Assembly (NCBI GenBank): GCA_963739455.1
Contig: CAVUAK010000001.1
Location: 1,344,001-1,408,000 of the forward strand
Length of the DNA: 64,000 bases
Reading direction: 5' to 3'
Source of the DNA: an uncultured Gemmatimonadales bacterium
Lineage (GTDB): Bacteria; Gemmatimonadota; Gemmatimonadetes; Gemmatimonadales; GWC2-71-9
Below the pieces are notes generated by a model. It made no database searches. It worked only from the letters and a program-made list of their open reading frames with translations, and was not told the origin of the DNA. Below, piece by piece: positions 10,332-20,905 of this stretch. Made by a program: the position numbers and the translations under genes. Position 1 is the first letter of the stretch. Every line of letters starts with the position of its first letter.

Positions 10332-11507
10332 ATGCACTTCGGCTCCCGCTCCCTGCTGCTCCTCCTCGGCGCCGTCAACGGTGCCATCCTCGCCGTGCCA
10401 TTGCTGCGCGCCCGGGTCAACCGGACGGCGAACCGCCTGCTGGCCGCCCTGATCCTCGTCACCGCCATCCGGCTGATCCCGTACGTCGTGGGCTATGCGG
10501 GGGCATATGACGAGCACCGATGGCTCACCTTCGCCCCGTTCGACCTCACCTTCGCGTTCGGGCCACTGCTCTGGGGCTATGTCGTGGTGCTCACCACCGG
10601 TGCGCTCCCGAGCCGGTGGCGGTGGCACTTCGTGCCCGTCGCGCTGCAGCTGGCATACTCGCTCGCCTGCTTCACGCTCCCGATCGATGCCAAGTGGGAC
10701 TGGTATACGGGGTGGCACCTGCACCTGGTGGACCCGGTCATGCTCGGCCTGTTGCTGGTGTCGCTCAGCGGGTACCTGGTGGCGGCGGGGCGCCAGTACC
10801 GACGCTATCTCACCTGGCTGGATGACCACCTCAGCAACAACGACGACGTACGCCTTGCCTGGCTCCGCAACATCCTCCTCGCCTTTGCGGCGACGGTCGC
10901 CGTCACCACCGGCTTCGCCCTCGCGGGATGGTTCGTGACCCCGCTCAACTTCTTCGATCGGTTCCCGGTGATGGTATGGCTCGCCGGGCTCACCTATTTC
11001 CTGGGTCTCGCGGGCTGGCGTGATGGTGAGCGACGCTATCCGCTCCCGTCGGATGTTGCCGACGGGCCGGCGCTGGTCCCATCCCGGCCCGAGCCGCGCG
11101 TCGACTACGCCGCCATCGCGAAGGGGTGGGTGAGCACCATCGAGGCAGGGGCGTGGTGCCGCGATGAGACGCTGACCCGGGAGCGGCTCGCCGAGCGACT
11201 GGGGACCTCGCCGAGGACACTGTCGCGCGTGCTGAATGAGGGGAGGGGGGAGAGCTTCCACCGCTTCATCAATGGGCTCAGGGTGCGGGCCGTGCAGCGG
11301 GAACTGGAGGATCCGGCTTCCGACCGGGACCTCCTGCAGGTGGCGCTCGATGCCGGCTTCTCGGCGAAGGCATCGTTCAACCGCGTCTTCAAGTCGGTGA
11401 CGGGCATGACACCCTCCACCTACCGGGAAATGGCCCGCTCGGGAGGTCTCACTTCGGGCCAAACCGTTGGAACGGCGGAAGCTGAGACGCAGACAAGGGG
11501 GGAGTAG
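10332..11507 (+). CDS. AraC-family regulator with N-terminal multi-TM sensor domain
   Basis: About six hydrophobic segments, then LAERLGTSPRTLSRVLN and VALDAGFSAKASFNRVFKSVTGMTPSTYR. Confidence 0.88.
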   Translation: MHFGSRSLLLLLGAVNGAILAVPLLRARVNRTANRLLAALILVTAIRLIPYVVGYAGAYDEHRWLTFAPFDLTFAFGPLLWGYVVVLTTGALPSRWRWHFVPVALQLAYSLACFTLPIDAKWDWYTGWHLHLVDPVMLGLLLVSLSGYLVAAGRQYRRYLTWLDDHLSNNDDVRLAWLRNILLAFAATVAVTTGFALAGWFVTPLNFFDRFPVMVWLAGLTYFLGLAGWRDGERRYPLPSDVADGPALVPSRPEPRVDYAAIAKGWVSTIEAGAWCRDETLTRERLAERLGTSPRTLSRVLNEGRGESFHRFINGLRVRAVQRELEDPASDRDLLQVALDAGFSAKASFNRVFKSVTGMTPSTYREMARSGGLTSGQTVGTAEAETQTRGE

Positions 11508-17283: not shown

Positions 17284-17371
17284 GGACGAACAAGGTACGG
17301 CATCGATGCCAACTGCGGGAAGAGGGAAGCGGGAAGAGGGGGTCTTGCGCGATTTCCCGATAACCTGTACT

Positions 17372-17461
17372 GTGTCTGCGCTTGACCGGGAGTCGCGTCC
17401 CAGAGGTCGTCGATCCAGAGCAGTGCCGCACGGCACCAGCAGGGTCGGCTATGGTGGCTGA
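17372..17461 (+). CDS. Putative leader peptide 1 (29 aa, Arg-rich, probably leaderless)
   Basis: GTG...TGA encodes MSALDRESRPRGRRSRAVPHGTSRVGYGG. TAACCT (17361-17366) lies 5 nt upstream. The stop overlaps the 5' arm of terminator 1. Confidence 0.45.
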   Translation: MSALDRESRPRGRRSRAVPHGTSRVGYGG

Positions 17462-17508
17462 GCCTGGCTCTCCCCCTACGACCACCGAGACGCGGCTCTT
17501 TTTGTTTT
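17460..17508 (+). terminator. Putative intrinsic terminator/attenuator 1
   Basis: Imperfect stem (GAGCC/GGCTC plus TCTC/GAGA) followed by TTTTTGTTTT. Confidence 0.5.
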
Positions 17509-17545: not shown

Positions 17546-17725
17546 GTGTCCGCGATGTCACGCAGGTCCATCCCAGCACGACCCTGCCGCTTGCATGGGG
17601 CAAAGGTGCGCACGGTCGCGCTCGCGACGGTGAAGGGGGACGTGTATGCGGACCGGCGAGCCTTGGTCGAGGGCGGTCGTGGAATTGATGCGATGCAGGT
17701 GGGGAGCGTGAACCGGGGGCCATAA
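17546..17725 (+). CDS. Putative leader peptide 2 (59 aa, ends NRGP-stop)
   Basis: AAGGAG SD (17534-17539), GTG 17546, TAA 17723-17725. MSAMSRRSIPARPCRLHGAKVRTVALATVKGDVYADRRALVEGGRGIDAMQVGSVNRGP. Confidence 0.65.
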   Translation: MSAMSRRSIPARPCRLHGAKVRTVALATVKGDVYADRRALVEGGRGIDAMQVGSVNRGP

Positions 17726-17760: not shown

Positions 17761-17802
17761 GCCCCACCTGCGCAGAAGATGCCGGGTGGGGCTTTTTGTT
17801 TT
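17761..17802 (+). terminator. Intrinsic terminator/attenuator 2, with competing antiterminator 17695-17704
   Basis: GCCCCACCTG...CGGGTGGGGC stem followed by TTTTTGTTTT. GCAGGTGGGG (17695-17704) is the exact complement of 17762-17771. Confidence 0.8.
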
Positions 17803-17817: not shown

Positions 17818-17830
17818 CGCTCTTTGACAA
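17818..17830 (+). promoter_or_regulatory. boxA antitermination element (NusB/NusE type)
   Basis: CGCTCTTTGACAA versus rrn boxA TGCTCTTTAACA. Lies just past the terminator and before the tRNA array. Confidence 0.7.
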
Positions 17831-17849
17831 CCGAAGGATGCGATGAAAA

Positions 17850-17913
17850 GACGTGATGACGTGAAGACGTGATGACGTGATGACGTGATGACGTGATGAC
17901 GTGATGACGTGAA
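17850..17913 (+). repeat. 8 x octamer GACGTGA(T/A)
   Basis: Direct reading. Same family at ~18088, ~18542, ~32683 and (reverse) ~44251. Confidence 0.95.
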
Positions 17914-18006
17914 GGAACTGCAGGCTGTGGCCGACGCGCGGATGGCGTTCTCATGCGAGACCGCGACTCCCGGATGGGGCGTCATTCGTTCGTCGTGCCA
18001 TTTCCT

Positions 18007-18078
18007 GAAGGCGTTGCGCAATGGGAGCGCGCCCGACTGTCTCTCGGGAGGGTGCGGGTTCGAATCCCGTCGGCTTCG
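18007..18078 (+). tRNA. tRNA-Asp(GTC), atypical, no encoded CCA
   Basis: Acceptor GAAGGCG/CGGCTTC (one G-G mismatch), D stem GCGC, anticodon stem CCCGA/TCGGG with loop CTGTCTC, T-loop TTCGAAT, G73. Confidence 0.8.
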
Positions 18079-18112
18079 TTGGTGCCGGACGTGAGGACGT
18101 GAGGGGTTATCC

Positions 18113-18185
18113 CAGGTGCGTAGCTCACTCGGCAGAGCGCGGGGATGTGGCCCCCGAGGAGGTGGTTCGAATCCGCCCCACCTGA
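18113..18185 (+). tRNA. tRNA-like gene with His(GTG) anticodon and irregular acceptor stem
   Basis: D stem GCTC/GAGC, anticodon stem CGGGG/CCCCG with loop ATGTGGC, TTCGAAT. Acceptor CAGGTG[C]G/CCACCTG needs a bulge. No G-1:C73. Confidence 0.65.
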
Positions 18186-18191
18186 TGTCAA

Positions 18192-18266
18192 CCGCCCGTA
18201 GCTGAGGCTGGGTCAAGCGCCCGTCTGATACACGGGAGCACGGAGGTTCGATTCCTCCCGGGCGGA
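18192..18266 (+). tRNA. tRNA-Ile(GAT), no CCA
   Basis: Acceptor CCGCCCG/CGGGCGG, anticodon stem CCCGT/ACGGG with loop CTGATAC, T arm GGAGG-TTCGATT-CCTCC, A73. Confidence 0.85.
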
Positions 18267-18277
18267 CTGCAGCACAA

Positions 18278-18350
18278 TCCTCGTAAGCATTGACGCGTGA
18301 TGCAGCGGGCTCTTAACCCGCAGAGCGGGGTTCGACTCCCCGACGGGGGA
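18278..18350 (+). tRNA. tRNA-Lys(CTT), atypical, no CCA
   Basis: Acceptor TCCTCGT/ACGGGGG (U1-G72), D stem GCAT/ATGC, anticodon stem GCGGG/CCCGC with loop CTCTTAA, TTCGACT. A instead of U8. Confidence 0.82.
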
Positions 18351-18353
18351 CTT

Positions 18354-18425
18354 GCTCCAGTGGCCGAGCGGCCGAGGCACCAGCCTTCCAAGCTGTGGAC
18401 GGGGGTTCGATTCCCTCCTGGAGCT
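18354..18425 (+). tRNA. tRNA-Gly(TCC), no CCA
   Basis: Acceptor GCTCCAG/CTGGAGC, loop CTTCCAA, TTCGATT, U73. Confidence 0.88.
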
Positions 18426-18462
18426 TTGAACTGCGGGGGACAGGGAACAGGGAACAGGAAAC

Positions 18463-18534
18463 GCGCGGATAGCTCAGCGGGAGAGCGCCGGTCTCACATA
18501 CCGGAAGGCGCTGGTTCAATCCCAGCTCCGCGTA
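18463..18534 (+). tRNA. tRNA-Val(CAC), no CCA
   Basis: Acceptor GCGCGGA/TCCGCGT, TAGCTCAGCGGGAGAGC, anticodon stem CCGGT/ACCGG with loop CTCACAT, TTCAATC, A73. Confidence 0.9.
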
Positions 18535-18593
18535 TCGTCATGACGTGAAGACGTGAGGACGTGAAGACGTGAGGAAACCGAAAGGAGGGTCAG

Positions 18594-19820
18594 GTGAAGA
18601 TCTTTGGAACGCACGACGACGAACACGCGGGCCCAGCTCGCCACAGGTGGCGGAGCGGGCCCGGAAGGTGGCGCTGATGGCCGACGGTCACGTGGGCTAC
18701 GTGATGCCGATCGGTGGAGTGGCGGCCTACGACAACGCGGTCTCGGTGGTGGGAGTGGGGTTCGATATCGCCTGCGGCAACGCCGCGATCCGGACCGACC
18801 TGACGCTGGCCGACCTGGGCGACACCGGTGACGCAGACCGCTCGAGCCTGACGAATCTGGCCGACGAGATCGCCGACACGGTGAGCTTCGGCGTCGGCCG
18901 GAAGAACCGGGCCGACGATGCGCCGACCGATCGATCCGCTGTTCGAGGACGCCGCGTGGGACGCCGTGCCGGCCAAGCATCGCCAGGCGCTCAGGACCAA
19001 GGCGCGCCAGCAGCTCGGCACGGTGGGAAGCGGCAACCACTACGTGGACGTCTTCGCCGACGAGGCGGGAGCGCTGTGGGTCGGCGTGCACTTCGGAAGC
19101 CGGGGATTCGGTCACACCGTCGCCTCGAACTTCCTGGCGCTGAGCCAGGGCAAGGCAAGTGGGGCGATCGGGCGCCCGAGGTCGAGGTGCTGCTGTCGCT
19201 CGACCAGCCGCTGGGTCACGACTACTGGGCCCTGATGGAGCTGGCGGGTCGCTACGCCTACGCCGGCCGGGAGTGGGTGGCCCGGAAGGTGGTCTCGATC
19301 CTCGGCGGGCGGGAGCTGGAGCTGGTGCACAACCATCACAACTTCGCCTGGAAGGAGCAGCACGAGGGCGAGGAGCTGGTGGTGGTGCGGAAGGGAGCGA
19401 CGCCGGCGTTCCCGGGTCAGCTCGGCTTCATCGGCGGATCGATGGGTGACGATGCGGTGATCGTGCGGGGCGCCGACGTCAGGAGATGCAGCGGTCGCCG
19501 AGACGCAGCGAGAGGCGCTCTACTCGACGGTGCACGGGGCCGGGCGAGTGATGAGCCGGACCGCCGCGGCCGGCAAGCGGAACCGGAAGACCGGGGAGAT
19601 CCTGACGCCGGGACGGGTCACGCCCGAGATGATGAAGGGCTGGATCGCGGAGAAGGGTGTGGTACTGCGGGGCGGAGGGCTCGACGAGAGCCCGCAGGTC
19701 TACCGCCGGCTGCCGGACGTCCTGGCGGCGCAGGGCGACACCATCGAGGTCCTGCACACGCTCCGGCCGCTCATCGTGGTCATGGCTGGAGCGAATGAGT
19801 TCGATCCGTACAAGGACTGA
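18594..19820 (+). CDS. rtcB: RNA ligase RtcB (several apparent frameshifts)
   Basis: AAAGGAGG SD plus GTG. Motifs across frames: LMADGHVGYVMPIGGV, VGFDIACGN, QLGTVGSGNHY, VHFGSRGFG, HNHHNFAW, VRKGATPA, GGSMG, HGAGR, DESPQVYR. Confidence 0.9.
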
Positions 19821-19936
19821 ACAGCGTTAGGAGGAACTGCAGGAGCATAAGGAGGAACTGCGACAGCGGGTGCTGCGTGGGCCGTCCGCAGTTGCTGTTC
19901 CTCCTCACGTTCTTCTGTTCCTCCTCACGCTGTTCA
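19818..19936. repeat. Long imperfect inverted repeat (REP-like hairpin of AGGAGGAAC/GTTCCTCCT units)
   Basis: TGAACAGCG...CGCTGTTCA ends. Related copies at ~60027-60150 and (partial) ~57200-57235. Confidence 0.8.
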
Positions 19937-19940
19937 TCAC

Positions 19941-20015
19941 TGCTCCGTGGCCGAACGGATTCAAGGCACCCGGCTTCGACCCGGGAGATTGAGGGTTCGA
20001 CTCCCTCCGGGGCAT
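19941..20015 (+). tRNA. tRNA-Arg(TCG), atypical, no CCA
   Basis: Acceptor TGCTCCG/CGGGGCA, D loop with GG then A20, anticodon stem CCCGG/CCGGG with loop CTTCGAC, T arm GAGGG-TTCGACT-CCCTC. Confidence 0.82.
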
Positions 20016-20076
20016 TCTGTCCATCGCATCCATCGGTTGACACACGGACACTCATGCAGGTGGAAGGGAGGGGACC

Positions 20077-20578
20077 ATGTTGCTGTGCCTGGTATACAAC
20101 ACGACCGGAGAGCCGATCGAGCTCGTGCCGTCGCTCATGGGCCTCGTGCTTCACCTGCGGGGCAAGGCGGTGATCCTGGAGACGGTGCCGGGGCGGTTCG
20201 CGCGAAGCCCGCGACTCAGTCTTCCCGCTGCCGGCAAGCGTAGTGCTGCGACAGCACCGGCGAATCGGGTCACGCGTGGCGGCCCTGACCAACGAGCACC
20301 TGTTCCTGCGGGACGGGCACCGGTGCGCGTACTGCGGGCGGCATCGCCGGGAGCTTGGTGCACGGGAGCGACTGACCCGTGACCACCTGGTGCCGCGGTC
20401 AAAGGGAGGAGCCGACACCTGGCTCAACGTGGTAACCGCATGCAGTTCGTGCAATCACGAGAAGAACGACAAGCTACTGAAGGATGCGGGCCGGAAGCCA
20501 CGGGTGGATCCGTGGGAGCCTTCGCGAGGCGAGCTGGTGACGCGACGGCTGTCGGCTCGACAGGCCACAGTGGCATGA
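20077..20578 (+). CDS. HNH endonuclease (McrA/COG1403-like), one apparent frameshift near 20230
   Basis: SD GGGAGG. RDGHRCAYCG, TRDHLVPRSKGG.DTW.NVVTACSSCNHEK. Confidence 0.85.
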
Positions 20579-20590
20579 AAGGAGACGACA

Positions 20591-20905
20591 ATGACAAGCG
20601 CCCGAACAAAGCGAGAGGAGGGATCGGCGGAGATCACGGCAGGCAGCTACTTCGTGGTTACGGGCGCGCACTTCTCGGCCTGGGTGAGCACGGAGATGGC
20701 CCGCCACATCGAGGCTTGCCTCGACGCGACGCCGCGTCCGGAGTGGATCGCGTTCGTCGACCTCAGCGGAGCACGCATCCGCCTCCGAAGCGGGCAGATC
20801 CAGTCGATCTGCCAGAGCACGGTGGAGCAGCGCCAGGTGTATCGTGACTTGTGGCGCGCGCTGCAGCAGGAGAAGCAGGCCGATCGTCGGCCCGACGAAT
20901 ACTGA
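20591..20905 (+). CDS. Small hypothetical protein, 104 aa
   Basis: AAGGAG SD right after the HNH stop. No family recognised. Confidence 0.65.
   Translation: MTSARTKREEGSAEITAGSYFVVTGAHFSAWVSTEMARHIEACLDATPRPEWIAFVDLSGARIRLRSGQIQSICQSTVEQRQVYRDLWRALQQEKQADRRPDEY

Follow-up and report, generated by a model that had tools for sequence, protein, structure and literature searches.

What is a long-range inverted repeat around a block of transfer RNA (tRNA) genes and rtcB for? The repeat lies in a 64,000-nucleotide (nt) stretch of DNA from an uncultured Gemmatimonadales bacterium (GenBank assembly GCA_963739455.1, contig CAVUAK010000001.1, positions 1,344,001 to 1,408,000; hereafter the window), and an initial annotation of that sequence had likened it to the processing stem of a ribosomal RNA (rRNA) precursor, cut by RNase III, excising tRNAs and rtcB messenger RNA (mRNA) as one possibly circular unit and uncoupling them from an HNH endonuclease gene outside the stem. 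We propose, with a probability of roughly 55%, that the arms form an rRNA-type leader–trailer helix, which closes an accessory tRNA array of the L-array kind and works without RNase III. All features described below are on the forward (+) strand of the window unless stated otherwise.

Sequence reading, a repeat search and the pairing register place the 5′ arm at 17825..17845 and the 3′ arm at 20022..20042, and the 5′ arm was also recovered by a genome pattern search. As initially annotated, 19 of the 21 positions pair, with A·A mismatches at positions 3 and 11, and weaker pairing continues to 17851/20016, for which the repeat search gives 85%. Allowing up to three mismatches, the 21-mer occurs at just two sites in the 3.6-Mb genome, the arms themselves (reversed control pattern, 0), showing that it is not a dispersed repeat. 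Repeats of this kind are rare in simulated sequence but not unique in the window: inverted repeats of at least 19/21 spaced 0.5–5 kb form 5 antidiagonals, compared with 0, 0, 0, 0, 0, 0, 0 and 2 in eight first-order Markov simulations, and three of the other four were inspected, two being simple-repeat-like or similar to repetitive extragenic palindromes (REP-like) and one GC-rich and coding-like. As a 21-nt repeat length is not unique within the window, the case for the helix rests on conservation and covariation.

The helix starts in a true rrn-type boxA, at the same position as the 16S and 23S leader–trailer helices of the lineage. This 12-nt boxA (17819..17830, genome pattern search) overlaps the 5′ arm and is identical to the boxA of the genome's rRNA operon (rrn) leader and spacer; the three exact copies in the genome are those of the rRNA leader, the 16S–23S spacer and this locus. 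Complete rrn boxA arms had their best partner just after the rRNA in 19/19 cases, one further case being truncated. Across the order, a boxA-plus-arm pattern matched 43 of 401 genomes with 0 control matches, and the 30 loci examined comprised 23 23S spacers, 2 16S leaders, 3 tRNA arrays and 2 others. Measured against rRNA leader–trailer helices, the flanks of the array are complementary over at least about 17 bp with covariation and the 5′ arm adjoins an rrn-type boxA, but the enclosed genes are tRNAs and rtcB, with no 16S or 23S rRNA.

To follow the arms among relatives, we compared two sets of homologous loci. Of the first set (n = 19), 15 have boxA and the 5′ arm, 2 do not (L046 and L162) and 2 are cut by contig ends. 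In 13 of these 15 loci, the best duplex within 4.2 kb falls after the last tRNA and beats all six shuffled arms, which were scanned with a coarser step that slightly favours the real arm. The second set (n = 11) contains 5 loci with a boxA-like site, 2 of which have the closing arm (L353 and L355); the helix of L355 encloses only decayed tRNA-like pieces. Taking both sets together, 15/20 homologous Gemmatimonadales loci with a boxA-linked 5′ arm have the best partner of that arm immediately behind the last tRNA, and the 3′ arm keeps this place while the enclosed length varies from about 0.5 to 4.1 kb. Both arms are conserved, with joint changes at five positions or more. In a column table of 12 loci in register (L048, which needs a bulge, was omitted), column 13 is G-C in 7 loci and A-U in 5, column 15 switches once from U-A to C-G and column 18 once from A-U to G-C. 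An additional G-C pair in both arms is common to G000 and G008, and columns 10–11 are altered on both sides in L048, L353 and L355. We count an estimated five or six apparently independent two-sided change events, a count made without a tree. Cognate arm pairs average −30.8 kcal/mol compared with −23.5 for swapped pairs, and the cognate partner ranked first in 10/13; none of 20000 permutations was as good, a value that overstates the support because five of the loci belong to one lineage. G·U pairs, found in L045, L307 and L355, point to pairing as RNA. Judged by these comparative patterns, the inverted repeat is a selected RNA helix.

The same comparison bears on whether the repeat could instead act as DNA, as the ends of a mobile or invertible element. 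The array is indeed patchily distributed, with 16 genuine leaders among 25 matches to a conserved leader 15-mer in 301 family genomes. Yet the repeat is single copy, its flanks have no target-site duplication and no transposase was found among the open reading frames (ORFs) tested, on which grounds we rejected transposon ends. The conserved unit also reaches 450 nt upstream of the 5′ arm, none of 15 loci has it in inverted orientation and G·U pairs are tolerated, leaving the DNA-level explanation hardly any credit.

We wondered which of the neighbouring genes the helix accompanies. In the 15 two-arm loci, rtcB lies inside the helix in 8, outside in 3 and was not seen in the available DNA of 4; when outside, it follows HNH (L045), Ro60 (L034) or directly the 3′ arm (L353). 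The closing arm was not found in five tRNA-less rtcB operons, two with a partnerless boxA remnant and three without boxA. HNH fares no better as an obligate partner, a role we rejected on its non-matching presence: the helix of L307 has no HNH, and L046 and L162 have HNH and tRNAs without arm or boxA. The helix follows the tRNA array, not rtcB or HNH.

As cleavage by RNase III is usual, though not universal, for rRNA leader–trailer helices, we looked for the gene of this enzyme in the present genome and its relatives. In the present genome, two Pfam models, a tblastn search with a genuine RNase III and a six-frame scan for motifs all gave no RNase III. PF14622 matched 0/27 other genomes of the family and 1/18 from the order's two other families; this sole match sits next to era at the end of a contig, in a draft genome with 3% contamination, and is possibly foreign. 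PF00636, which we take to cover Mini-III as well, matched 0/55, 0/28 and 0/1 genomes in the order's three families (0/84 of the order sampled) and 0/20 in five further families, giving 0/104 genomes over families f1–f8; it was found in family f9 (1/1) and, as an internal positive control, in 14/15 genomes from other classes of the phylum. Five near-complete genomes likewise gave no RNase III match over the cut-off. Absence here means not found among the sampled genomes: on that basis, the order and most of its class yielded no RNase III, but it is present in other classes of the phylum. This suggests that the Gemmatimonadales are a large RNase III-less group. The accessible part of a 2021 review names Deinococcus radiodurans alone as lacking RNase III, and the literature searched, mostly without subscription papers, held no account of RNase III loss in Gemmatimonadales. 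Genes for NusB, Rho, RNase E/G and YbeY are present in this genome; RNase J was not found in it (84% complete).

RtcB requires a 3′- or cyclic phosphate plus a 5′-OH and does not join RNase III-type ends. RNase III leaves 5′-P/3′-OH ends (PMC8708148, in its accessible part). Moreover, no bulge-helix-bulge motif was found in the stem, the registers of homologous arms showing mismatches only. A scheme of stem cleavage by RNase III and circularisation of the tRNA and rtcB block by RtcB gains some appeal from the 8/15 loci with rtcB inside and from the rrn-like stem length and boxA position, but the enzyme not found in genome or family, the unfit end chemistry and the missing motif led us to reject both the RNase III site and the RtcB circle, and rtcB lies outside the stem in L034, L045 and L353; the combined scheme is very improbable. 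Archaeal circular pre-rRNA, made through a bulge-helix-bulge, EndA and RtcB, is similar in having a long-range stem with an RtcB gene nearby, and differs in that the present stem has no bulge-helix-bulge, sits in a bacterial host and is untied to the position of rtcB. Of the rRNA-precursor-like handling initially proposed, the conserved covarying stem, the rrn-type boxA and the presence of NusB and Rho genes stand; the RNase III cut, the RtcB circle, rtcB as part of an excised unit and the link between stem and HNH fall. The enclosed content was given correctly as seven tRNA genes and rtcB, but rtcB and the HNH gene outside are frameshifted here.

Another nuclease, replacing RNase III for Gemmatimonadales pre-rRNA, might cut the helix and release the array, with hairpin E (described below) and the rtcB mRNA where it lies inside, as one linear piece. 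Maturation of rRNA in this lineage has to proceed without RNase III, and along some 20 nt the array arm is similar to 23S arms (20 letters are identical in the 23S leader of G158, for example), with an internal mismatch at columns 10–11 common to the array stem and the genome's 23S stem. However, most homologous stems have no mismatch at columns 10–11, part of the shared sequence also follows partnerless boxA sites, no enzyme emerged as a candidate, and the occurrence of HNH does not match that of the stem. We regard such a handle for a nuclease as possible but doubtful. Nine non-rrn boxA sites, before IS110 copies, a transfer-messenger RNA (tmRNA) gene and unidentified genes, share the first 8–10 nt of the arm and have no clear partner. 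The likeness to the 23S arm may in part be an extended boxA, and descent of the array module from an rrn operon is so far not supported.

Several observations weigh against an RNase III-free leader–trailer helix. The arms of L043 pair no better than shuffled arms, L175 has lost its 3′ arm, and L046 and L162, in which boxA and both arms are missing together, keep 5-tRNA arrays, so the module is dispensable. Tied ends help rRNA to fold, but tRNAs fold alone and the benefit is not obvious. The start of the arm is shared with partnerless boxA sites, so that an extended boxA, not descent, may account for its similarity to the 23S arm, and the operon in this genome may be inactive, its rtcB being broken 5 times. 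Some of these points could also be explained if only boxA antitermination mattered and the 3′ arm were left over from a copied rrn module and now had little function: L046 and L162 lack the module, and it is decayed in L043, L175 and L354. Such a relic would hardly be expected to have changed on both sides, in separate lineages, at five positions or more, or to stay right behind the last tRNA although the enclosed length ranges over about 0.5–4.1 kb, and we consider it improbable.

Overall, we favour a model where the leader–trailer helix has a structural job. When translation falters, an attenuator in the leader would let RNA polymerase pass a terminator (T2); NusB/NusE would then load on boxA and protect the polymerase from Rho as it crosses the array, most of which is untranslated. 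The Nus complex would keep the 5′ arm at the polymerase until the 3′ arm has been transcribed, and the helix would close without an RNase III cut, most likely tying the ends of the precursor and marking the end of the stable-RNA block and the resumption of mRNA. Ordinary cleavages by RNase P and RNase E/G-type enzymes would free the tRNAs, with rtcB as a passenger whose position relative to the helix varies.

Ahead of boxA is a conserved control region, absent from the initial annotation. A probable promoter, read by eye (TTGCGC, 17 nt, TACTGT; 17345..17373), would start transcription near 17380, and a similar −35/−10 pair precedes most homologous leaders. The fold then gives a long-loop terminator-like helix, T1 (17387..17508), composed of a 5′ strand (17387-17401), a 3′ strand (17489-17498) and a U tract (17499-17508). 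In a 13-locus alignment, the 15-nt 5′ strand is invariant (13/13), and the 3′ strand has wobble-only changes with no compensatory pairs. A 59-aa upstream open reading frame (uORF) from the ORF list (17546..17725) follows, ending in Gly-Pro-stop, its last codons covering an antiterminator strand (17695-17704). Next comes T2 (17761..17802), an intrinsic-terminator hairpin with a U-rich tail (−26.3 kcal/mol) that is conserved in homologous leaders and whose 5′ strand can pair alternatively with 17695-17704, as judged by complementarity and the centroid fold. A consensus promoter/terminator scanner called neither the promoter nor T1 or T2. The uORF ends in Gly-Pro-stop in 13/15 leaders in which the antiterminator strand was detected (9/24 leaders examined had no match to the strand pattern), and its sequence is not conserved apart from its end.

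Downstream of boxA, hairpin E (17928..18000) has a stem of about 27 bp, and its apical part (17962-17972) is antisense to the 5′ end of the transcript (17387-17397). Across 15 loci, 97.7% of the alignment cells are paired and 10/27 pairs have two-sided changes, a level reached by 0/500 shuffles, whereas slid controls gave 38–54%. The apical 11–12 nt are invariant and antisense to the T1 5′ strand, and the fold gives −28.6 kcal/mol for pairing of E with the transcript 5′ end compared with −21.5 for T1's own 3′ strand. The E–T1 pairing is thus predicted from complementarity, an invariant seed offering no covariation support, and the seed may alternatively be a protein site on DNA or RNA. Hairpin E is single copy in the genome, and its covariance model matched 2/141 genomes of the phylum. 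The T1 15-mer occurs at 25 places in 23/301 family genomes, with 2 control matches, and 16 of these are genuine leaders. Counts given here include unpublished genomes, on none of which a conclusion depends: G025 in the T1 15-mer and PF14622 family samples and in the search for matches to the dispersed repeats, and G102 and G218 in the boxA-plus-arm and T1 15-mer searches. The E sequence is found in cis in 15/16 genuine T1 leaders, even where the E stem is unrelated; no T1 leader that would support trans action by lacking E in cis was found among the 16, the odd one having an insertion-like ORF after T2. An E-loop pattern with 1 mismatch over 401 genomes was left unused, its reversed control matching about as often. 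No Rfam family covers T1, T2, E or the arms. Together, the terminator, the uORF attenuator and a covarying hairpin with an invariant loop antisense to the 5′ end of the transcript make up a conserved and apparently undescribed leader. A T1 leader with hairpin E also stands before L358 (G312) and L359 (G213), which have no rtcB, HNH or tRNA array in the available DNA.

The closest described attenuator is that of whiB7/wblC (bioRxiv 10.1101/2023.06.02.543512, in its accessible part). There, as here, the end of a long uORF overlaps the antiterminator strand before an intrinsic terminator, and read-through is expected under poor translation. In contrast, the present leader has an extra terminator-like T1 before the attenuator, independent of translation, and boxA and hairpin E after it, and any positive feedback would act by RNA and not by a transcription factor. 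Small transcription-activating RNAs (STARs), which are synthetic, share with hairpin E the idea that a terminator could be blocked by an RNA complementary to its 5′ strand. Hairpin E differs from them in being natural and encoded downstream in the same transcript, with trans action as a proposal. As E is made only after read-through, trans action would give positive feedback. More speculatively, the locus could be an RNA-only self-amplifying stress switch, in which poor translation opens the attenuator, the rRNA-like precursor is closed by the helix and processed without RNase III, and freed E blocks T1 on new transcripts and so increases transcription further; we think this unlikely, although worth stating. 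If true, the helix would be a dispensable inducible reporter for RNase III-free rRNA maturation across a bacterial order.

The array itself resembles the L-array of Anabaena PCC 7120, in which the HNH, rtcB and dpsA neighbours are induced under translational stress (accessible parts of PMC8421152 and PMC10272220). With the Anabaena trn operon and TrcR regulon, as far as those accounts go, it shares an array of supernumerary tRNA genes, neighbours that include HNH, rtcB and, here, dps, and a patchy distribution of the kind that suggests horizontal spread (16 leaders in 301 family genomes, no tree), and relatives of this locus add Ro60 and tRNA-like RNAs. Unlike what those sources describe, control here appears, from the anatomy of the leader, to be uORF attenuation and not a repressor on direct repeats, and the copy in the window has only 7 tRNAs. 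Stress-type induction of the array is likewise suggested by its leader. The main text of neither PMC8421152 nor PMC10272220 mentions 'boxA' or 'RNase III', and in the literature covered we found no account of a boxA-anchored closing helix on a tRNA array. In L033 (G008) and L034 (G009), several long tRNA-like RNAs lie between HNH and Ro60; they are absent from the window and, we presume, resemble YrlA Y RNAs.

The locus combines two known things, an L-array-type stress operon and an rRNA leader–trailer module, and the genomes searched in its lineage yielded no RNase III. In Escherichia coli, the rRNA leader–trailer helices are required whether RNase III is there or not (PMC10250234; Gemler et al. 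2024, PMC11404451). Such helices are studied for their part in ribosome assembly, a field in which the need for them independent of RNase III is still a standing question (PMC10250234, PMC11404451). Like those helices, the array helix joins the flanks of a stable-RNA block over about 17–23 bp, with a 5′ arm that starts in boxA and with covariation; its boxA is identical to, and its arm similar to, those of the lineage's own rrn operons, and it is retained without RNase III, as are the rRNA helices of Deinococcus radiodurans. It differs in enclosing tRNA genes, a hairpin RNA and often an rtcB frame, and in lying behind two terminators, so that it would be conditional. A covarying helix around self-folding tRNAs, in a lineage that yielded no RNase III, sets the helix apart from ribosome folding and from RNase III, and makes the array a non-essential test case for the role of leader–trailer helices. 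With its leader, the locus would bring a second mode of control to stress tRNA arrays, along with a candidate antisense activator of natural origin.

Within the block, ARAGORN at default settings (a relaxed setting gave noise) calls six tRNA genes, Asp(GUC), His(GUG), Ile(GAU), Lys(CUU), Gly(UCC) and Val(CAC), at 18006..18534, of which Rfam finds 5/6, and tRNA-Arg(UCG), the last of the array, at 19941..20015, found by both. Another gene elsewhere in the genome was called by ARAGORN for 6/7 array anticodons, tRNA-Arg(UCG) being the genome's sole UCG-anticodon gene. The array has 7 tRNAs here compared with 14 in G008, and relatives reach 18. Between the two groups of tRNA genes lies rtcB (18594..19820), frame-broken, with Pfam RtcB matches in three frames and five frame-shifting insertions relative to the intact G008 gene. 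The HNH gene (20077..20578, Pfam) has one frameshift near 20221, the G008 form being intact (166 aa), and close homologues of its protein (71–100% identity) occur in Gemmatimonadales/Gemmatimonadota records. Frame changes also occur in about three flanking genes among 25 non-operon queries, indicating some indel noise in the assembly, and the rate in rtcB is well above that noise. Decay of the operon in this genome is likely, though not proven. Ro60 was not found in this genome, again at 84% completeness. After HNH, a 104-aa protein without a Pfam family (20591..20905) recurs downstream of HNH or rtcB in many such operons, at 42–56% identity.

The spacers are filled with repeats. An 8-nt tandem repeat occupies 17849..17914, with further copies at 18087 and 18541-18574, and is dispersed in these genomes; a REP-like inverted repeat without assigned strand lies between rtcB and tRNA-Arg (19816..19940), with matches elsewhere in the genome and in related genomes. 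Such short tandem and REP-like fillers (also at 18430-18460) vary among relatives, and some occupy the positions of relatives' tRNA genes. A weak ARAGORN tRNA-Gly(CCC) call at 11008-11095 of the window, without Rfam support, is probably false.

The rRNA operon and other boxA sites gave further observations. The single rRNA operon of G000 (C1:2580234-2585295, L040) has a spacer without tRNA, tRNA-Ile and tRNA-Ala lying elsewhere. In L315 (G104:C3:362800-382600), which has three copies, an rrn-type boxA lies in the non-coding flank of repeated IS110-family elements, and similar boxA sites occur in L314 and L316 (G213); one ORF of these elements was confirmed as DEDD_Tnp_IS110, and no closing arm was found. 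The non-coding flank of IS110 elements usually encodes bridge-type RNAs. In G035 (L313:851-1234), boxA lies 27 nt before the tmRNA gene, and the tmRNA gene of the window's genome has no boxA. Among 45 viral loci with the boxA 16-mer, an ungapped 16-nt partner was found in 3/45 and a strong partner in 2/6 folded, none around a tRNA array. In the viral contigs L289:5001-5540 and L281, a promoter, boxA and 5′ arm are followed by one or two short protein genes and a matching 3′ arm directly after the stop codon, so that the module closes an mRNA in phage contigs; L271, L293 and L297 look similar.

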